From: an uncultured virus (IMG/VR IMGVR_UViG_2061766007_000328)
Lineage: Duplodnaviria; Heunggongvirae; Uroviricota; Caudoviricetes; Crassvirales
Reading direction: 5' to 3' (one strand)
DNA: 38,331 bases
Virus record (IMG/VR): IMGVR_UViG_2061766007_000328
The stretch's first letter is position 1, and each line of letters starts with the position of its first letter. Shown piece by piece: positions 2,575-17,471 of the stretch. The position numbers and the translations under genes were made by a program. The notes under the pieces are model-generated. The model saw only the letters and a program-made list of their open reading frames with translations. It was not told the DNA's origin and made no database searches.

Positions 2575-5500
2575 CTAATTCTTTTTTACGTTTTTGGCTC
2601 TAAGAATAGCGGCTTTTACCTCATCATTGTTGCCATACACGTTGCGTAGGCGGTTGAGGATGCCGCCGTAGTCCATAGGAGTAGAGAAAAGGTTACGCTC
2701 ATAGTCCCTGCGCTTTCTCAGACCACGGTTCTTCTTGTCGTTATAGCCGAAATCTATGTTGTTGACCACAGTGTCAAGGTCAAAGTTCTTCAGAGCCTCC
2801 TGCATAGCCGGAGACTTACGCGTATATCCACCGTGACCTATGTTGTAGTAGTAACTGAACAGGGCATCCCTCTGGTTCTGGTTGAGCTTGTCGAAGTTTG
2901 GCGTGGCATTGATGAACATCGGAACCCTCCTGCTTACGGTATCCGCAAAATACTGGTCAGCCTCTGCCTGCGTCATGCCATTAGGGAACCTCTTCCTGAC
3001 ATCATCACCAGTAAAGCCGTAGCCTATGGTCCATACGCCATTGCCGTCCTGATACCATTGGTCACGAAACGCTTCTGTGTCCTTGATGTACTTGAGTATA
3101 TCGTCAGACGGGACATAGTTGCTCTGGACAACTGATGACTGCCCTGCTGCGACTGTCGGTTCTGTTGCCCGCATGAGATTGTTGAAAGGCCCAGGAACAA
3201 ATGTATCGCCTTCCCAGTGACCTACTCCTTCATGACCCTTGGCATAGATGCTATCGGTACTGAACGTAGGGTGATGCGGCTGTTTCCACGTATCCGGGAA
3301 ATGGAAGTCAGGGGAAGATACGTCAGCATCCCTGTTGTTGAGCCAGTAACCACGGTAATCGTATGCGTGAGAGTACGCATCCGGATTCGGATCTAACCCA
3401 AGAGTTGCTGCAGCATTGGCATACCAGTCCTGGAATTTCTTTTCTCTCCTGTCGCCCAGTTCTGTTACGAAGTATTTGCCGTTGCGCTTTCCTTTTATCC
3501 TTCCACCGTTCGCGTATTCTAAATTATTATATAGCGAGTCAATATCTGGGTCAGGGACCAATTTCCACTCGTCCTTATTATGATATCTTCTATCATAATA
3601 TTCAAAAGGCTTTCCTAAGCCAAAATGAAGCGTAGACTTCCCTTGGCCAAGACCTATATCCCACAAATCATAGAAACTCCTATATTCTGGAGTACCATAA
3701 TTTGCAAAGTTGCCTAACCCGCTGATATTCCCATAATCGCGTGTTTGAAATTTTCCAACATAGTTCATAGGAATAAATCCCTCAGATATCTTATCGTGTT
3801 CTCTAAGCTCATCAGCATGTTTGTCAAAATAATTTGACCAAGCAGCAATATTTGAGTCGGCTTTACTGGTCGCATAATCTAACCCATACTTATTGGCGTC
3901 TGAGTAAAAATCTGAACTTAAATAATCATCTCCGATTTTCTTAAGCCTCTTATATTCATTTATTACAGCATTGTTCTGTATGCCCTTATTTCCATACGGA
4001 TTCCGATAAAAAGTATAGTAGTAATCAGCACCTCCATTTGTGTTAGACGGAAGATATTTAGAGATTTTCACTGGGGCGCCAAACCCTTTTCTGTCAGATA
4101 TCTCCTGGTTCTTTTCTATTGGATACCCCAAATAATACCGCAACTGATTATAGTGAGTTGAATTTTCCGGCGAATAGTCTTCTTCTCCTGCACGCTGATT
4201 ATGATTAAGCACTAGTGCGTCTATTGCTTGATTAGCATCGTAGTCTTCATAGAAAGCAAGATTATTTAATGCCCTTTTAGAAATAAGTGTTTTATTCTGC
4301 GTTTGTTCATTAGTTATACCATACGTATCTAGCTCCTCCTGTTTCTCCTTCCTTAATTCAGGATTAGTAAACTCAGGATACTTTCTCTCCCATGCAGCAG
4401 CCTTACCAGACGCAACATCTTCTTTATATTGCCTCCCGTGTTCTCCCTCATAATCAGTGTTATAGTACCTGCCGTTCCAAAAGAATGTTTTCTGCCCTTT
4501 TTTGCGAGCATCTTTGTATGCCTCATCAAAAGTGTACTCCTTCCCCGAATATCTATCTGCGGTTAAAACCTCAGAAACAACGTCCACATTATTTACAAGC
4601 GGAGACCTGCCCTTAAGTTCAGCAGCTTTAGCCGCAATAGCCGCCGCACCGTATGCAGCAATAAGATCGCGCAATCTTTTTGATCCACTTTCGCCCCCAC
4701 CCCGAAACACATTTTTATCAGGATACTGCTGAAGGAAACCGCCGTCTTCGTGCCACTTGGCTGAATTCCTAGCGAAGTTGGCTTTGCGTACCATAGCAGG
4801 CGAATAGTTCTCCTTATGAGCAAGAACCTGCGACGCAAACGCCTGTACGGATTTACCATGCTTTGTCGCAGCAGCAGTGAATGTGCCCCGCTTGGACGGC
4901 TTGATGTGAATTGAACCCCCATCCTCCAAAAGAGTAGGGTCTTGTAGAGCAAACTTGAAACTTGAACCCGGATGTACAATTTTTGGGAATCCACCACGTT
5001 CCGGGTTCCATATAACTTCATCACCAACACCTCCGTCGTGTATACCCCTAAGAACAACACCTGGATAGTCCATACCAGGTGTATCAGAAACCGGCTTGCC
5101 AAGTAACCTTGATATATCATCGGTACTATGTATTTTATAACCATCCAATATCAATGGGTTATTGGATGTCATTTTAGCATAATCACCGCTAACACCGGGT
5201 ACATTACCATAATACTTTTGCATCAAAGTGATATTCTCAGGAGTCGGTTCAAATAGTTCTGACCAGTTCTGGCCCCTAACCGTGCTTATTTCCCGCAGTT
5301 TCCCCTTCGGAATAGTAAGCAAGTACATGTTTGGAATACCACCTTCTGTACTATAAGCCGAAGGAGTTTTTAGAGATGCGTTATAATTGAATCCCGATTT
5401 ATATCCTGCAGCTAAGTCGTGCGATCCACCAAAAAAGCTATGGTACCCGCGCAACCCACTCTGCCATCCAGGAACCGAAGTAAACCCACGCCAGAAATAA

Positions 5501-6798
5501 TCAACGCCTTCAGGATAAGCTTTCTTTGCTGCGTCTGTCCTAAGAGCCGCCGCCCACCAGTCCGGTATAGCAACCGGATCTCCGGATATGTCTCGTGCTA
5601 TTGTTTCAAGCGGCTCCATTTCTCCACGATTAACCATATCAAGTATCTGCTGCACCTGGATATGTTCCGGGGTACTAACCATAATATTATGTGGTATGGT
5701 TCGCATTACTTTGCCCTCATTCGGTGCAATTGTAGATGCTGATACTAAAGGTTGATTATATTCCATTGGTGTCATCCCAACCAACGGAGCGCTATTTGAT
5801 GATGGAGCAGCCTGTGTTACGCCTGCAGCAGATGACGCATTTGCCGAAGCACTTGCTAGTTTTTCGTTCTCGTAGAAAAGATTGAGATACGCCTGTTCTG
5901 GAGTAATGTTCTTGGAGACAGACTCATCTATAATACTATTAAACTGATTCTCCGACAGGTTAGGAAAACTCTCTTTTTTTAAGTGTTGGTACTTCAATGT
6001 CGGATCTGCCTTATGCTTCGCATTAGCTTCCGCCATTGTTTTCCAGTATTCCTGAGCAGACAAGCCAGCAGCTTCAGCCTGGTCACCAATAATGTCTGCC
6101 TCATACTCGGGCACATACTTGAAAGCGGTTGCCGGGCTGTCAGGATAGCCAGCAACCTTATTAAAATAATGCTCGTGCCCGGCAAGCCAGTTCTCCCACG
6201 CCTTTTGGTCATAACCCGCAGATTCTAAAGGACTCAACGGCTTCAACGCTGCAGAACCAGCAGTACTTATACTCTCAACCGGTTCAAGTTTGCCGTCCTT
6301 GAGATACATAGGGCCTTGCCAGGTCATAAGCAAAGTCTCTCCAGTATCTACATCCTTTCCCACACCGAGACCATTTGCTTTCGCATATTGCTTCAGACCC
6401 GATGCCTTCTTCTTTGCCGCACTCTCTGCCACCTTCTTCTCTATAGCCTTACTTATTCCTTTAGTTAACGCCTGCGGAGCCAGTGTCAATCCCATCATAG
6501 TCACACCAGGCAACACCTGTCCATTCGCCATCATCTGACCAGCCTCGTACATCTGCATCGGGTCACCGGCATCAGTGTAACTCATTATCTCCTGCTCCAT
6601 AGGAACAAGAGGCTCATCCTTTATCTCTCCAGGTAACCTCTGATTAGCAATCTTCTCAGATACCCTGTCGAACATCTTCTGCTCTCTGCGGCTGGCAATG
6701 TTATCCTTGGCGGAACGAACCTTATCTACTCCGTATTTATTGATAAGCTCCTGTAAGAGCAATGGATTAACTGGCATAACAAATCTACTATTAGTCAC
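2575..6798 (-). CDS. Large multidomain putative virion/ejected protein with C-terminal GH24 lysozyme and central ART-like domain
   Basis: 1407 aa (alternative ATG at 6777); IKDTEAFRDQWYQDGNGVWTIGYG...DALFSYYYNIG is a phage lysozyme; repeated xxGG motifs. Confidence 0.75.
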   Translation of the reverse strand: MTNSRFVMPVNPLLLQELINKYGVDKVRSAKDNIASRREQKMFDRVSEKIANQRLPGEIKDEPLVPMEQEIMSYTDAGDPMQMYEAGQMMANGQVLPGVTMMGLTLAPQALTKGISKAIEKKVAESAAKKKASGLKQYAKANGLGVGKDVDTGETLLMTWQGPMYLKDGKLEPVESISTAGSAALKPLSPLESAGYDQKAWENWLAGHEHYFNKVAGYPDSPATAFKYVPEYEADIIGDQAEAAGLSAQEYWKTMAEANAKHKADPTLKYQHLKKESFPNLSENQFNSIIDESVSKNITPEQAYLNLFYENEKLASASANASSAAGVTQAAPSSNSAPLVGMTPMEYNQPLVSASTIAPNEGKVMRTIPHNIMVSTPEHIQVQQILDMVNRGEMEPLETIARDISGDPVAIPDWWAAALRTDAAKKAYPEGVDYFWRGFTSVPGWQSGLRGYHSFFGGSHDLAAGYKSGFNYNASLKTPSAYSTEGGIPNMYLLTIPKGKLREISTVRGQNWSELFEPTPENITLMQKYYGNVPGVSGDYAKMTSNNPLILDGYKIHSTDDISRLLGKPVSDTPGMDYPGVVLRGIHDGGVGDEVIWNPERGGFPKIVHPGSSFKFALQDPTLLEDGGSIHIKPSKRGTFTAAATKHGKSVQAFASQVLAHKENYSPAMVRKANFARNSAKWHEDGGFLQQYPDKNVFRGGGESGSKRLRDLIAAYGAAAIAAKAAELKGRSPLVNNVDVVSEVLTADRYSGKEYTFDEAYKDARKKGQKTFFWNGRYYNTDYEGEHGRQYKEDVASGKAAAWERKYPEFTNPELRKEKQEELDTYGITNEQTQNKTLISKRALNNLAFYEDYDANQAIDALVLNHNQRAGEEDYSPENSTHYNQLRYYLGYPIEKNQEISDRKGFGAPVKISKYLPSNTNGGADYYYTFYRNPYGNKGIQNNAVINEYKRLKKIGDDYLSSDFYSDANKYGLDYATSKADSNIAAWSNYFDKHADELREHDKISEGFIPMNYVGKFQTRDYGNISGLGNFANYGTPEYRSFYDLWDIGLGQGKSTLHFGLGKPFEYYDRRYHNKDEWKLVPDPDIDSLYNNLEYANGGRIKGKRNGKYFVTELGDRREKKFQDWYANAAATLGLDPNPDAYSHAYDYRGYWLNNRDADVSSPDFHFPDTWKQPHHPTFSTDSIYAKGHEGVGHWEGDTFVPGPFNNLMRATEPTVAAGQSSVVQSNYVPSDDILKYIKDTEAFRDQWYQDGNGVWTIGYGFTGDDVRKRFPNGMTQAEADQYFADTVSRRVPMFINATPNFDKLNQNQRDALFSYYYNIGHGGYTRKSPAMQEALKNFDLDTVVNNIDFGYNDKKNRGLRKRRDYERNLFSTPMDYGGILNRLRNVYGNNDEVKAAILRAKNVKKN

Positions 6799-7500: not shown

Positions 7501-8572
7501 GCTCAGTAGTCCGAGTCATTAGGCAAGTTTTTCCCGCGCGTGTAATCTTTTGATTTTTTCANNNNNNNNNNNNNNNNNNNNNNNNNNNNNNNNNNNNNNN
7601 NNNNNNNNNNNNNNNNNNNNNNNNNNNNNNNNNNNNNNNNNNNNNNNNNNNNNNNNNNNNNNNNNNNNNNNNNNNNNNNNNNNNNNNNNNNNNNNNNNNN
7701 NNNNNNNNNNNNNNNNNNNNNNNNNNNNNNNNNNNNNNNNNNNNNNNNNNNNNNNNNNNNNNNNNNNNNNNNNNNNNNNNNNNNNNNNNNNNNNNNNNNN
7801 NNNNNNNNNNNNNNNNNNNNNNNNNNNNNNNNNNNNNNNNNNNNNNNNNNNNNNNNNNNNNNNNNNNNNNNNNNNNNNNNNNNNNNNNNNNNNNNNNNNN
7901 NNNNNNNNNNNNNNNNNNNNNNNNNNNNNNNNNNNNNNNNNNNNNNNNNNNNNNNNNNNNNNNNNNNNNNNNNNNNNNNNNNNNNNNNNNNNNNNNNNNN
8001 NNNNNNNNNNNNNNNNNNNNNNNNNNNNNNNNNNNNNNNNNNNNNNNNNNNNNNNNNNNNNNNNNNNNNNNNNNNNNNNNNNNNNNNNNNNNNNNNNNNN
8101 NNNNNNNNNNNNNNNNNNNNNNNNNNNNNNNNNNNNNNNNNNNNNNNNNNNNNNNNNNNNNNNNNNNNNNNNNNNNNNNNNNNNNNNNNNNNNNNNNNNN
8201 NNNNNNNNNNNNNNNNNNNNNNNNNNNNNNNNNNNNNNNNNNNNNNNNNNNNNNNNNNNNNNNNNNNNNNNNNNNNNNNNNNNNNNNNNNNNNNNNNNNN
8301 NNNNNNNNNNNNNNNNNNNNNNNNNNNNNNNNNNNNNNNNNNNNNNNNNNNNNNNNNNNNNNNNNNNNNNNNNNNNNNNNNNNNNNNNNNNNNNNNNNNN
8401 NNNNNNNNNNNNNNNNNNNNNNNNNNNNNNNNNNNNNNNNNNNNNNNNNNNNNNNNNNNNNNNNNNNNNNNNNNNNNNNNNNNNNNNNNNNNNNNNNNNN
8501 NNNNNNNNNNNNNNNNNNNNNNNNNNNNNNNNNCGCTACCGAAAATGGAATAATCATCTACAAGAAATAGAT

Positions 8573-8940
8573 ATGGAAGAGATAAAGACCCTTTCTTTCT
8601 TTGGTGATAACGGATTGTCCAGCACATCCGCCAACCATGTCGCCAATCTTGCCAAGGAGGCGGTACGTAAGTATCGCTATGCCCTTGAGAATATCAACTT
8701 CTGCAAGGAGAGTATTTCCGTCATAGGAGATAAGACCGCTACCGTTGTGGAAGAGGGAACAGACTATGATACTTTGCAGAGTATTCCTGGTATCATTCAG
8801 AAGATAGCATCTGCCAATTCCCTTATTGCTTTTCTTCGTGAGGCAATCAAGGAGAAGGAGCGTAGGTTCAAAGAGGCCAAGGAGTATGTCGATGTTGACA
8901 GGAGGAAAGCGCTCGATGCTGAAAAGATCGAGTTAGGAGT
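8573..8940 (+). CDS. N-terminal fragment of coiled-coil protein (variant of 14125..15060)
   Basis: MEEIKTLSFFGDNGLSSTSANH identical start. Confidence 0.7.
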
Positions 8941-13903: not shown

Positions 13904-13936
13904 CTGATTTGTATAATATCTAAATTTGCAAGAAAT

Positions 13937-14122
13937 ATGAAGACTAAGAAGAACGTTGGTCGTTTTGGTGGTCTTATTGACCAGATGAACAGGGACAGGC
14001 ATCATCTCGTCCTCGTGGCTCTCAACAAGGCAAAGGATTTTGCCCATGAGTGTATCCGTCGTGGATACGATATCGAAATCGGTGATGCCACTGAGAAGGG
14101 TATAATCATTTACAAGAAATAG
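13937..14122 (+). CDS. Hypothetical 61-aa protein
   Basis: ORF preceded by TAAATTTG -7 element (13921-13928). Confidence 0.7.
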   Translation: MKTKKNVGRFGGLIDQMNRDRHHLVLVALNKAKDFAHECIRRGYDIEIGDATEKGIIIYKK

Positions 14123-14124
14123 AT

Positions 14125-15060
14125 ATGGAAGAGATAAAGACCCTTTCTTTCTTTGGCGATAACGGATTGTCCAGCACATCCGCCAACCATGTCGCCAATC
14201 TTGCCAAGGAGGCGGTACGTAAATATCGCTATGCCCTTGAGAACATCAACTTCTGCAAGGAGAGCATTTCCGTCATAGGAGATAAGACCGCTACTGTTGT
14301 GGAAGAGGGAACTGACTATGATACTCTGAAGAGTATTCCTGGTCTCATTCAGAAGATAGCATCTGCCAATTCCCTTATTGCATTTCTTCGTGAGGCAATC
14401 AAGGAGAAGGAGCGTAGGTTCAAAGAGGCAAAGGAGTATGTTGATGTTGACAGGAGGAAAGCGCTCGATGCTGAAAAGATCGAGTTAGGAGTTGCCGCTC
14501 TAAGCTCAACCAAGGCACCTGTACGTGAAGCATATCCTACCGAGGAGGATGTCAAGCTTGAGTGGACTATTGGTGAGCAGGAAAAATACCTGTCGCTTGA
14601 GGCCGAAGCTGCTGCTCTTGGTAAGGCTATTCACGAGGATGGTCCTATCAGCACTGCACGTATAGACTTGATGAATAAGATTCTCAAGCCTAATCGTGTT
14701 GCTGCCAACGGGCGTGATACTATCATCTACCAGTATTCTCCACGTGTGCGTGTTGAGGATGTAGATATAGTATATGATTCGCTTCAGAAGCGTTTCCGCA
14801 GTGTCCAGGCTGAACTCAATGGTATGAAGAAGCGTATTGAGGATACTATCCTCGAGCGTAAGATTGCCATTGACAACGCATATAACGAGGCAATGCGTGA
14901 GTATAACGCCAAAGTGACTGATTACAGGCGCAGGGATGATGCTTTCGAGCGTGAGATGGATATCAAGCGCAAGGAACTCATGCAGCAGGTGAATGCGCTG
15001 AAGATAGTCATTCCGAACAGGCTCAAACCTATGTACGACCTCCTCATGGAGAACAAATAA
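14125..15060 (+). CDS. Long coiled-coil protein of unknown function
   Basis: 311 aa, heptad-rich, C-terminal KIVIPNRLK. Confidence 0.8.
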   Translation: MEEIKTLSFFGDNGLSSTSANHVANLAKEAVRKYRYALENINFCKESISVIGDKTATVVEEGTDYDTLKSIPGLIQKIASANSLIAFLREAIKEKERRFKEAKEYVDVDRRKALDAEKIELGVAALSSTKAPVREAYPTEEDVKLEWTIGEQEKYLSLEAEAAALGKAIHEDGPISTARIDLMNKILKPNRVAANGRDTIIYQYSPRVRVEDVDIVYDSLQKRFRSVQAELNGMKKRIEDTILERKIAIDNAYNEAMREYNAKVTDYRRRDDAFEREMDIKRKELMQQVNALKIVIPNRLKPMYDLLMENK

Positions 15061-15137
15061 TAACAATCAGCTAAGATCAGTACTGAGTACTTGTACGAAT
15101 CTGGTCTGAATGCCGAGGGTGGATATGNNNNNNNNNN

Positions 15138-15683
15138 ATGCCCGTACGTGAAGTATATCCTACCGAGGAAGATGTCAAGCTTGAGTGGACTATTGGTGAG
15201 CAGGAGAAATACCTTTCTCTTGAGGCTGAGGCTGCTGCTCTTGGCAAGGCTATTCACGAAGATGGTCCCCTCAGTTCTGCACGTATAGACCTGATGAATA
15301 AGATTCTCAAGCCTAGCCGTGTTGCTGCCAACGGACGCGATACTATCATCTACCAGTATTCTCCACGTGTTCGTGTTGAGGATGTAGATATAGTATATGA
15401 TTCGCTTCAGAAGCGTTTCCGCAGTGTCCAGGCTGAACTCAATGGTATGAAGAAACGTATTGAGGATACTATCCTTGAGCGTAAGATTGCCATTGACAAC
15501 GCATATAACGAGGCAATGCGTGAATATAACGCTAAAGTGTCTGATTACAGGCGTAGAGATGACGCTTTCGAGCGTGAAATGGATATCAAGCGCAAGGAAC
15601 TCATGCAGCAGGTGAATGCGCTTAAGATAGTCATTCCGAACAGGCTCAAGCCTATGTACGACCTCCTCATGGAGAACAAATAA
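15138..15683 (+). CDS. C-terminal variant copy of coiled-coil protein
   Basis: Near-identical to about 14515-15060. Confidence 0.75.
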   Translation: MPVREVYPTEEDVKLEWTIGEQEKYLSLEAEAAALGKAIHEDGPLSSARIDLMNKILKPSRVAANGRDTIIYQYSPRVRVEDVDIVYDSLQKRFRSVQAELNGMKKRIEDTILERKIAIDNAYNEAMREYNAKVSDYRRRDDAFEREMDIKRKELMQQVNALKIVIPNRLKPMYDLLMENK

Positions 15684-15687
15684 TAAC

Positions 15688-15930
15688 AATCAGCTAAGGC
15701 CAGTACTGAGTACTTGTACGAATCTGGTCTGAATGCCGAGGGTGGATATGNNNNNNNNNNGGCACAACCATTACTAATAAGGCTTATCAACAATGTCCCG
15801 AACTACAAATCTTTATGCCTATGAAGCGTGATGGTGGAGGCAGGGCTTTTGTTCTTGTAGTAGTTCGAGGTTTTGGTTCTGGTTCTTGCTTTTGGTTTTT
15901 GCATATCTGCCTTCGGCAAGTTGATTTTTA
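15688..15930 (+). ncRNA. Candidate structured ncRNA of unknown class
   Basis: 15734-15750 pairs with 15902-15918 (17 bp, 3 G-U); 15688-15695 pairs with 15919-15926; internal stems; spans a 10-N gap. Confidence 0.6.
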
Positions 15931-15953
15931 TTATTTTTGTAAAAATTATCATC

Positions 15954-16832
15954 ATGTTAGGAGCAATTATAGGTGATGTTGTGGGCTCGACGTATGAGTT
16001 CCACAATACTAAGGATTACAATTTCAAACTGTTCCCTGAAGGTAGTAAATATACTGACGATACTATAATGTCTCTTGCGGTTGCCAGTACACTTATGAAG
16101 TGTCCGAATAACTATACGGAGAGATATGAAGTATTTGAAGATGAAATGGTACGCCTTGGACAGATGTTTCCTGTTCCCAAAGGAGGTTATGGTGGAGGAT
16201 TCGCAAGGTGGTTGTTCAGTCCTGCACTTTTGTTTTCTTATGACGGGAAGGAATATCCTAAATCCGAGTCTGGAAGATTTCCTTATGGGTCTAACGCCAA
16301 CGGCTCAGCCATGCGGGTATCTTCTATTGGATGGTTTTATAGTGGCATTTCTGCATATAAGATGACTTGTCGTGCCTCTTATGCATCCGCTGATATTACC
16401 CATAATTCAGAAGAGGGACGTGCTGGTGCATGTGCTGTGGCAAATGCCATTCGTCTTGCTCGTGAGGGTAAATCCAAAGAAGAGATATGTGAGTTTGTAG
16501 AAACTCAGTTTGGTTATGACCTTCATAAGACATGGTATTACTGGCGTAAAATATATAAGTGGGACAGCAGTTGTAGCGGCACAGTTCCTCAAGCTATCAT
16601 TTGTTTCCTTGATTCAATAAATTTCGAGGATGCTATACGCAAGGCCGTGTCTCTTGGAGGAGATTCGGATACCATAGCTTGTATAACTGGTGGTATCGCT
16701 GAGGCCTATTACAAGGAAATACCTAGTTTCATGGCTCATAAGGCTATGGAAACACTTCCTGATGTACTTAAAGACATTCTCAAGAAGTTCCAGGATATAG
16801 TAGGATACTGGGACATAGTAAAATTAGTATAA
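15954..16832 (+). CDS. ADP-ribosylglycohydrolase (DraG/ARH family)
   Basis: MLGAIIGDVVGS, YTDDT, GSNANGSAMR, ITHN, GGDSDTIACITG motifs; true start likely ATG 15954. Confidence 0.92.
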   Translation: MLGAIIGDVVGSTYEFHNTKDYNFKLFPEGSKYTDDTIMSLAVASTLMKCPNNYTERYEVFEDEMVRLGQMFPVPKGGYGGGFARWLFSPALLFSYDGKEYPKSESGRFPYGSNANGSAMRVSSIGWFYSGISAYKMTCRASYASADITHNSEEGRAGACAVANAIRLAREGKSKEEICEFVETQFGYDLHKTWYYWRKIYKWDSSCSGTVPQAIICFLDSINFEDAIRKAVSLGGDSDTIACITGGIAEAYYKEIPSFMAHKAMETLPDVLKDILKKFQDIVGYWDIVKLV

Positions 16833-17353: not shown

Positions 17354-17429
17354 GGTCCCTTAGCTCAGTTGGTTAGTCAGCAGCTGACTCATAATCAGCA
17401 GGTCGCAGGTTCAAGTCCTGCAGGGACCA
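17354..17429 (+). tRNA. tRNA with CAT anticodon, most likely Ile2 (lysidine type)
   Basis: Acceptor ggtccct/agggacc, anticodon arm gctga-ctCATaa-tcagc, T-loop GGTTCAAGTCC; C4/C5 acceptor and A73 as in ileX-type tRNAs; no encoded CCA. Confidence 0.9.
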
Positions 17430-17471
17430 CTAGCCTTTTTTCAAACAAGGTTTCATAACTAGCTTATCGTT

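Follow-up and report, generated by a model that had tools for sequence, protein, structure and literature searches.

The RNA locus and its assembly

The window analysed here is the whole 38,331-nt stretch of IMG/VR record IMGVR_UViG_2061766007_000328, a metagenome scaffold that contains 30 runs of N and covers a phage replication region with genes for a DnaB-like helicase, a primase, a DNA polymerase and a Sak4-like annealing protein, together with a tRNA-Met and an ADP-ribosylglycohydrolase (ARH). Within it, the gene of a conserved helical protein of 311 aa is followed on the same strand by a structured RNA and then by the ARH gene (Table 1). The original prediction, made from the letters of the window, had grouped these three elements into one candidate ribonucleoprotein module and had estimated the RNA at ~240 nt. 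The comparative analysis reported here indicates that the RNA is almost certainly a real, new structure kept by selection, and it bears out a tight linkage of the RNA to the upstream gene across homologues. The family of phage-encoded structured RNAs to which it belongs is described neither in Rfam 15 nor in the literature searched.

The scaffold strings together strain variants of the same stretches and is therefore colinear with no single genome in this part. Stretches that are 93-96% identical to one another (8534-8940; 13086-13385/13514-13813; 14506-15127/15138-15750) stand in tandem or several kb apart with N10 gaps between them; 8534-8940, for instance, is 95.6% identical to 14087-14492. 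At the RNA locus itself, 14506-15127 and 15138-15750 share 94.6% identity (577/610). Their coding parts differ at 31 positions, 25 of which are third codon positions, and outside the coding parts they differ only at 15076 and 15077, two positions of the same P2 strand at which pairing is preserved. The high identity, the mostly third-position differences and the flanking N gaps together mark the two versions as strains and not as a duplication: the repeat around the RNA locus consists of pieces of one locus from co-occurring, co-assembled strains and is a scaffolding artefact. The original prediction had described two variants of the 5' hairpin that both keep their pairing; the pairing is indeed preserved in both, and the two copies are now explained as co-assembled strains. 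An exact 23-mer of the window had no match in IMG/VR.

Predicted architecture of the RNA

The fold is a three-way junction (P1/P2/P3) with the inner stems P4 and P5, and P1 closes the ends of the RNA. In P1, AATCAGCT pairs with AGTTGATT, which is followed by a T-run, so that 8 bp link the first and the last bases of the RNA. The internal loop of P2 is formed by an invariant ACUGA (15705-15709) and an invariant GAA (15720-15722) placed around a small covarying hairpin (15710-15719), often closed by CUUG, and another GAA, between P2 and P3, is invariant across the alignment. P3 (15734-15750/15902-15918) comprises 17 bp, of which 14 are Watson-Crick pairs and exactly three are G-U pairs, the latter being valid only on the + strand. 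When the window was scanned for stems of 17 bp with at most three G-U pairs and arms 20-300 nt apart, two were found, P3 and 12847-12865/12922-12940, versus none in 20 shuffles; chance is an unlikely cause of the P3 stem. The linker between P3 and P4 is variable (31-90 nt, with optional hairpins), P4 has 10 bp with one C-A mismatch in the window strain, and P5, inside P4, carries a conserved loop. Every stem named in the original prediction was recovered in place. A hammerhead reading of the CUGA...GAA strings was considered and rejected: the core has no second GA, stem I is missing, and no Rfam ribozyme model gave a hit.

The N gap within the RNA could be closed. A metagenome contig (L009) with the same gene order and a 95% identical protein places 42 nt between GGATATG and GGCACAACC, and in contigs from four of four public runs 15750 and 15761 are likewise connected by 42 letters. 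Two of these runs (X1 and X3) represent one sample, possibly the source, whereas the other two (X6 and X7) come from two other studies and yet give identical contigs. The 42 nt belong to the P3-P4 linker. The gap-free RNA is 271 nt long, with a minimum free energy of -101.5 kcal/mol (z = -6.15 versus shuffles); the earlier length estimate fell 32 nt short because of the N gap.

Covariation and extent of the family

Loci were collected by anchoring on the 311-aa protein, which yielded 8 viral loci, 57 metagenome loci, one locus in a GenBank phage (PQ006092.1, 98.6 kb, circular) and 7 true loci in Bacteroidales metagenome-assembled genomes (MAGs). The MAG loci include Muribaculaceae and Cryptobacteroides, and one of them lies within a 3.3-Mb chromosome and is therefore a prophage. 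The carriers, phages and prophages of Bacteroidales from rumen and gut, are roughly 65-145 kb in size. Some of these 73 loci are the same contig from two collections, and the number of unique full-length RNAs is only 39; these are 218-308 nt long. Among GenBank phages, tblastn gave two records, and blastn with the RNA and the gene gave a match only for the ARH, to Bacteroides phage Versailles, and none for the gene.

An RNAalifold consensus on a MAFFT alignment of 13 RNAs contained 54 pairs, 44 of them with compensatory changes, and a covariance model, R1, was built from this alignment. R1 gave 51 matches in the window and 66 loci, plus matches in seven of seven MAG loci, all on the strand of the gene. 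Counted over the 73 loci, 56 had R1 matches (49 plus the 7 MAG loci; 12 of the 56 weak or partial, below 35 bits), 9 carried a divergent version, 2 had no RNA, and 6 could not be judged, with less than 150 nt downstream. The nine divergent loci are the most distant ones (protein 28-30% identical) and were missed by R1; they encode a ~400-nt version with the same P1, P2 and P3 and both tracts, for which RNAalifold on six sequences gave 78 pairs, 17 with compensatory changes. The tight linkage between RNA and gene spans 27-97% protein identity. Collecting the downstream regions of the protein homologues, as the original prediction had suggested, revealed both covariation and linkage.

In a model-fitted alignment of 45 distinct rows, standard pairs filled 94.3% of the cells, as compared with 35.5-40.8% when the partners were slid by 1-3 columns. 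Two-sided compensatory changes occurred in 53 of the 54 pairs, and none of 500 shuffles reached any observed measure. The independent MAFFT-based result agrees in direction with these pair counts. G-U or U-G pairs occupied 188 of 1940 cells, and A-C or C-A pairs only 20; the selected strand is therefore the + strand and the selected molecule RNA. The selection on + strand RNA that had been proposed from P3, whose three non-Watson-Crick positions are all G-U, is borne out by the covariation and by this asymmetry. The same observations bear on the possibility that the conserved stretch is a DNA-level element (a replication origin, iterons or a packaging site) or a small protein-coding gene. Its location amid replication genes would suit the former, and a 58-codon open reading frame (ORF) annotated over the homologous stretch of PQ006092.1 would suit the latter. 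Neither accounts for the wobble asymmetry or for compensatory changes in nearly every pair, and all three frames are interrupted by stops in each of 34 RNAs examined, which excludes a conserved ORF; we consider a DNA element or coding gene barely credible.

The RNA was also looked for independently of the protein. A whole-genome search found one RNA copy each in five of five genomes or records. In a survey of 151 Bacteroidales genomes, the only true match was the known carrier; a second hit (28.8 bits) was a U-rich stretch with no protein homologue nearby. A scan for the 5'-hairpin pattern gave nine matches, three of which were true, all at loci already known. A scan of IMG/VR for the hexamer pattern gave at least 119 matches, with no full-length RNA by R1 in the 80 that were checked, and the seven best partial hits were either simple repeats or Q/E-type coding repeats of the opposite strand.

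Within the whole window, no Rfam 15 model matched at gathering thresholds except tRNA-Met, and relaxing the threshold to E<=10 over 14900-16100 and the gap-free L009 RNA gave only chance-level hits of 12-19 bits. This agrees with the original prediction, in which the RNA was not recognised as a known family. We found no earlier description of it in the literature searched, which comprised open-access papers. In its accessible parts, the catalogue of viral structured RNAs by Fremin et al. 2023 (PMC10690425) holds candidates of 29-151 nt; the RNA motif was not found in six supplement files of that catalogue, and a fragment of the RNA may be listed there.

Table 1. Positions of the features discussed in the text (window coordinates unless a locus is named).
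Feature	Position	Strand	Remarks
Conserved helical ('coiled-coil') protein coding sequence (CDS), 311 aa	14125..15060	+	The one gene that is constant beside the RNA
5' part of the RNA, strain variant A (P1 5' strand, P2, P3 5' strand)	15065..15127	+	Truncated by N gap 15128-15137; R1 partial match 15065-15254
3' part of the 311-aa CDS, second copy (strain variant B)	15138..15683	+	Scaffolding artefact; flanked by N gaps
Structured RNA, strain variant B	15688..15926	+	239 positions including 10 N that stand for 42 nt; R1 206.9 bits, E 6.6e-55
P1 5' strand (AAUCAGCU)	15688..15695	+	Starts 4 nt past a double stop codon; pairs with 15919-15926
P2 hairpin	15697..15730	+	Outer stem 15697-15703/15724-15730, one base past P1
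P3 5' arm	15734..15750	+	17 bp in the window, 18 bp with the gap filled
N gap (42 nt hidden)	15751..15760	.	Variable inserted hairpin region, start of the P3-P4 linker
P4 with enclosed P5 and hexamer tract 1	15797..15869	+	P4 15797-15806/15860-15869; P5 15816-15820/15838-15842; tract 1 15843-15859
Hexamer tract 2, (H-U-H-U-Y-G) repeated	15870..15900	+	G every sixth base; runs from P4 back to P3
P3 3' arm and P1 3' strand	15901..15926	+	P3 15901-15918; P1 15919-15926
U-run after P1, terminator-like	15927..15939	+	Overlaps TAnnTTTG-type motif 15932-15939, 14 nt ahead of the ARH start codon
ARH gene	15954..16832	+	PF03747 2.6e-36, 126.2 bits (cut-off 26.2); phrog_6572 1.4e-53
tRNA-like modules in the linker	L007 3789-3888; L008 3784-3882		Sub-threshold YrlA and tRNA hits
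Loci with ADP-ribose-removing or RNA-end-processing enzymes	L002, L012, L015, L019 (first ORF past the RNA); L060 3400-4287; L038/L040/L041 1605-2345		

Hexamer tracts

The periodic G/U tract that the original prediction had pointed out was confirmed, and no part of the RNA is more conserved. In the 39 unique RNAs, tract 2 reads G-U-U-y-U-y-G and then n-U-n-U-y-G three more times. Both tracts, which lie on the 3' side of the fold, share the consensus HUHUYG with a period of 6; tract 1 has 2-3 such units and tract 2 ~4-5. The U and G phases hold 1.3-2.0 bits, as against 0.1-0.4 bits in the two variable phases, in which G almost never occurs. Across 11 independent close pairs of RNAs, conserved tract positions had changed in 5.2% of cases and stems in 7.6%, compared with 13.0% (139/1068) for other unpaired positions and 16.9% (20/118) for the variable tract positions. 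With the lowest substitution rate at its conserved positions, the tract is the most constrained sequence of the RNA; its variable positions, judged by the same pairs, drift at the neutral rate and are not hypervariable.

These rates are relevant to a comparison with VIPR, the nearest published phage RNA with a short periodic repeat coated by an adjacent protein. The vrRNA of VIPR has 9-16 YNNGG repeats of period 5 with hypervariable NN, which a RAMP protein coats periodically (bioRxiv 10.64898/2026.04.26.720920). As in VIPR, the RNA described here is phage-encoded, lies beside a protein gene and combines an alternating conserved and variable tandem repeat with a conserved structured part. These likenesses would fit a programmable, non-contiguous guide RNA, the conserved positions of which hold a protein filament while the variable ones spell out the target. 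Unlike the VIPR RNA, however, it has a period of 6 with HUHUYG in place of YNNGG, only ~7 repeats divided between two tracts, a much larger scaffold and a helical protein without a RAMP signal. Moreover, the variable positions avoid G and lack the hypervariability of a guide, and Foldseek and VIA, searched with the AF2 model of the protein, listed no RAMP among their matches, a weak negative that does not exclude such a fold. A guide function is accordingly very unlikely in our view.

Two further systems show likenesses. TRAP reads (G/U)AG repeats and HutP reads UAG repeats, both being ring proteins, and their operators resemble the present tracts in having a conserved triplet at ~5-7 nt spacing in single-stranded RNA, in two clusters. 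Unlike in these operators, the triplet here is UYG, and the tracts lie inside a large closed fold at a 3' end instead of a 5' leader attenuator; no TRAP or HutP homologue was noticed, no search aimed at one having been made. The omega RNAs or reRNAs of TnpB/IscB likewise derive from the transcript of a protein gene and abut the end of its ORF, but the present locus has no nuclease-like protein, transposon ends or guide segment.

Transcription unit and RNA ends

Counted from the last base of the stop codon, the 5' end of the RNA lies at -17 to +13 nt in 36 of the 39 unique RNAs, and in several the stop codon is inside P1. No TAnnTTTG motif, which we take to be the Bacteroidota -7 promoter box, was found within 70 nt upstream of the RNA in any of the 39. 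At the other end, a U-run follows P1 in 30 of 39 RNAs; the nine without it all keep P1 and are followed by a tRNA within a few nt or by a separate terminator hairpin. An intrinsic terminator is a compact, G+C-rich hairpin with a U-run directly behind it. The U-run is often present here, but the helix in front of it is A+U-rich, brings together bases that are ~230 nt apart and is retained in these nine RNAs. The start at the stop codon, the missing promoter motif of its own and the constant presence of P1 argue for a discrete RNA whose ends would be set by P1. The same data argue for production of the RNA from the tail of the upstream gene's transcript, with a linker that tolerates large insertions, even whole tRNAs. 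A tRNA starts a few nt past the RNA in L001, L004, L024 and L046.

Two observations concern the linker itself. In L063, a canonical tRNA-Ile(UAU) at 2379-2454 is nested in the variable linker of the RNA. In L006-L008 (135-145-kb phages), the linker holds tRNA-like modules that ARAGORN does not call and that score 30.8-37.9 bits on the Rfam tRNA and YrlA models.

The arrangement of the ends would also be expected of a purely cis-acting 3'UTR element, that is, a large terminator, an mRNA-stabilising cap or an RNA-processing hub without a dedicated protein partner, which would end or protect the upstream mRNA and separate it from the tRNAs or accessory genes that follow. The start at the stop codon without a promoter motif, the frequent U-run and the tRNAs that abut or nest in the RNA at the five loci just named (L001, L004, L024, L046 and L063) are in its favour, and the long P1 and P3 helix resembles a substrate of double-strand RNases. 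A terminator or cap, however, needs neither an invariant ACUGA/GAA loop nor phase-conserved tracts that evolve more slowly than the stems, P1 is kept even where the U-run is absent, and ~250 nt with 54 covarying pairs far exceed what such roles require. We regard an exclusively cis-acting function as unlikely.

The paired ends and the tRNA-like modules also recall YrlA (RF02553), a Y RNA of which phage-encoded examples exist (PMC4201824), and raise the possibility that the RNA acts together with the Ro60 (Rsr) protein. The present RNA resembles YrlA in the long stem formed by its 5' and 3' ends, in the large pyrimidine-rich interior and in the tRNA-like modules of L006-L008; the interior modules of L007 and L008 score 37.9 and 36.3 bits (E 8e-5 and 2e-4) against the Rfam YrlA model, and the junction of the distant subfamily carries GGUCCGA-like and GCCGAAG-like strings, motifs quoted in PMC4201824. 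It differs from YrlA in being two to three times longer and in having periodic tracts, and it does not appear to conserve the Ro-contact motif: the Y RNA motif near the 5' end, GNCGAAN0-1G / GGUCCGA, is full only in the distant subfamily, with GAA invariant after P2a and P2. GGUCC itself makes up the 3' strand of P2, where it covaries, and the main family does not conserve it. The YrlA scores, moreover, are far below the gathering score of 69 and cover the tRNA-like inserts only, and the window and L009 gave no hit. TROVE (PF05731) was detected in none of four phage genomes or records and in none of three carrier MAGs, which may be incomplete, whereas control genomes were hit. A Y RNA function is thus extremely unlikely. 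Even when pooled with the guide and DNA or ORF readings, it leaves these three with a small share of the probability.

The upstream protein

The 311-aa protein has 366 homologues at E<=1e-3, many of them on 66-140-kb contigs and none with a name or a Pfam domain. No family was found for it in Pfam or PHROGs, the only Pfam signal being a sub-threshold OmpH hit. Its AF2 model (pLDDT 78.9) consists of long helices and two beta-hairpins. Searches of a PDB sequence profile, Foldseek PDB and a protein atlas returned nothing informative, the best match of a wide VIA search with the model (Z 6.8) was helical noise, and BFVD contained one matching uncharacterised phage protein (TM 0.75, 18% identity). 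No longer, fused forms of the protein were found. Upstream of the gene, small ORFs of 61 aa and 124 aa in the window are each conserved in only four loci and are therefore not partners of the RNA.

At L001, a complete 94-kb phage contig, positions 2216-2286 score 55.2 bits with the RAGATH-1 hammerhead ribozyme model, just under its gathering score of 56.3; the coiled-coil homologue lies ~215 nt further downstream.

Neighbouring genes

The original prediction had included the ARH as the third part of the module, and this did not hold. In a neighbour scan of 24 ORFs (23 first ORFs past the RNA and the ORF after the L060 gene), the ARH was the first ORF past the RNA in only 3 of 23 relatives (L009, L046 and L047), besides the window; in most relatives the RNA is followed by tRNAs or by other genes. 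By tblastn, an ARH was present in eight loci, upstream, downstream, far off or on the other strand. Because its position varies in this way, the ARH is a recurrent accessory gene of the region and not a component of a fixed module. Among the 24 neighbour ORFs, a tRNA-ligase-type 2H phosphodiesterase-like protein occurred four times, at 18.6-24.7 bits versus a cut-off of 23, DUF6717, PcfJ and PARG occurred once each, and no family was found in 14. In the window, tRNA-Met (CAU) lies at 17354-17430, 0.5 kb 3' of the ARH, and shares the strand of the RNA.

Enzymes for ADP-ribose removal or RNA-end processing (ARH, microbial-type PARG and tRNA-ligase-type 2H phosphodiesterase-like proteins) recur around the locus at shifting positions. 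The locus may be an accessory or counter-defence hotspot beside tRNA genes.

Such a setting would also suit an RNA that acts in trans as a decoy or sponge for a host factor. Its target might be an RNA-binding protein of the host, a ribonuclease or a defence enzyme directed at RNA or tRNA; the pyrimidine-rich tracts would be the bait and the upstream gene a mere transcriptional carrier. Besides the tRNA genes and the changing set of ADP-ribose-removing and RNA-end genes (ARH in 8 loci, PARG in L060, 2H-like in 4 loci), this is consistent with the tRNA-like modules inside the RNA of L006-L008 and with the finding that host genomes lacking the phage also lack the RNA. The neighbour genes vary, however, and the argument from them is one of guilt by association; a near-perfect linkage to one phage gene over deep divergence would be left unexplained. 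We hold a decoy role to be about as unlikely as an exclusively cis-acting one.

A proposed mechanism

We propose that the RNA domain would be a discrete, stable RNA with paired ends, whose tracts would offer a series of binding sites to a repeating protein surface that reads them in 6-nt steps. The likeliest reader would be the protein encoded upstream, which would assemble on the 3' end of the mRNA that encodes it; its linkage to the RNA and their common transcript make it the best candidate. The three-way junction and the invariant loops could provide an anchoring or nucleation site. Taken as a whole, that is, a new structured-RNA family together with a protein-scaffold mechanism that involves the upstream protein, this proposal is our leading model; it is tentative, and we rate its chance of being correct as somewhat short of even.

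Several points weigh against the proposal and the evidence behind it. The pair counts in the 45 rows come from a model-fitted alignment, which favours the model's own structure. The linkage estimate is biased because nearly all RNA instances were found by anchoring on the protein, and the RNA-first checks were small (three true among nine pattern matches; one true in 151 genomes). At two loci, L060 and L061, the protein homologue is present and the RNA is absent, a microbial-type PARG gene and then bacterial genes following instead. Another small ORF stands between gene and RNA in L012 and L047, so that direct adjacency is not obligatory. Synteny by itself is no proof of binding, and the 311-aa protein, which is mildly acidic (median pI 5.8 in 30 aligned homologues), showed no known RNA-binding fold or family in the searches. 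Finally, pairing of tract 2 with the A-rich 5' linker marginally beats shuffled linkers (mean z -0.81; z < -1 in 18 of 35 RNAs), and the tracts may be partly paired with this linker. Since this pairing is only marginal, the tracts are predicted to be single-stranded or loosely paired.

A bolder version of the protein-scaffold mechanism can be imagined. A non-RAMP protein would polymerise on single-stranded RNA in exact 6-nt steps, with the three-way junction setting the register; the resulting particle would act on host or rival RNA or on tRNA metabolism in early infection, and the tRNA-nesting relatives would be fusions that load or present tRNA-shaped cargo. To our knowledge, ruler-like binding in fixed steps is otherwise found in Cas7 backbones and viral nucleocapsids. 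We offer this version as a speculation that is probably wrong in at least some of its parts.

Significance and relation to other large RNAs

Large bacterial or phage RNAs with dozens of covarying pairs are rare and have repeatedly yielded new biochemistry, such as ribozymes, RNA cages and guide systems. The family described here is well defined by its 54 pairs, its invariant junction loops and its strict 6-nt phase, occurs widely among rumen and gut Bacteroidales phages and is linked to one uncharacterised protein family. The linkage to the RNA makes an otherwise opaque gene directly testable for RNA binding, and the tRNA-tolerant linker bears on how tRNA-like modules are recruited into larger RNAs.

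Among known families, ROOL and GOLLD (PMC5737381) are likewise ornate covarying RNAs from rumen and gut metagenomes, occur in phages or prophages and often lie near tRNAs. The present RNA is unlike them in its size (~220-400 nt versus 581 and ~800 nt), in matching neither model, in being fixed to the 3' end of one protein gene and in having hexamer tracts. According to the abstract of PMC13370968, Hfq and CsrA, the classical RNA chaperones, are absent from Bacteroidales; a phage RNA that offers a dedicated single-strand platform might for this reason show how proteins and RNA recognise each other in their phylum.

Other features of the window

Three further features lie outside the RNA locus. 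The 19-bp inverted repeat at 12847-12865/12922-12940, the second stem of the scan described above, surrounds a 16-nt unit (AAAGATTAATACATCY) that is directly repeated three times, and is succeeded by an N gap and a stretch rich in A and G. It is the window's only long stem besides P3, and possible functions are an operator, a set of iterons or a site resembling an origin. On the - strand, the ORF at 2575-6798 encodes 1406 aa, the C-terminal ~160 residues of which match endolysin families (phrog_7, 3.5e-28), and its product is probably a large virion-associated lysin. Finally, a TAnnTTTG-type motif at 13921-13928 lies 8 nt ahead of the ATG of the ORF at 13937-14122.

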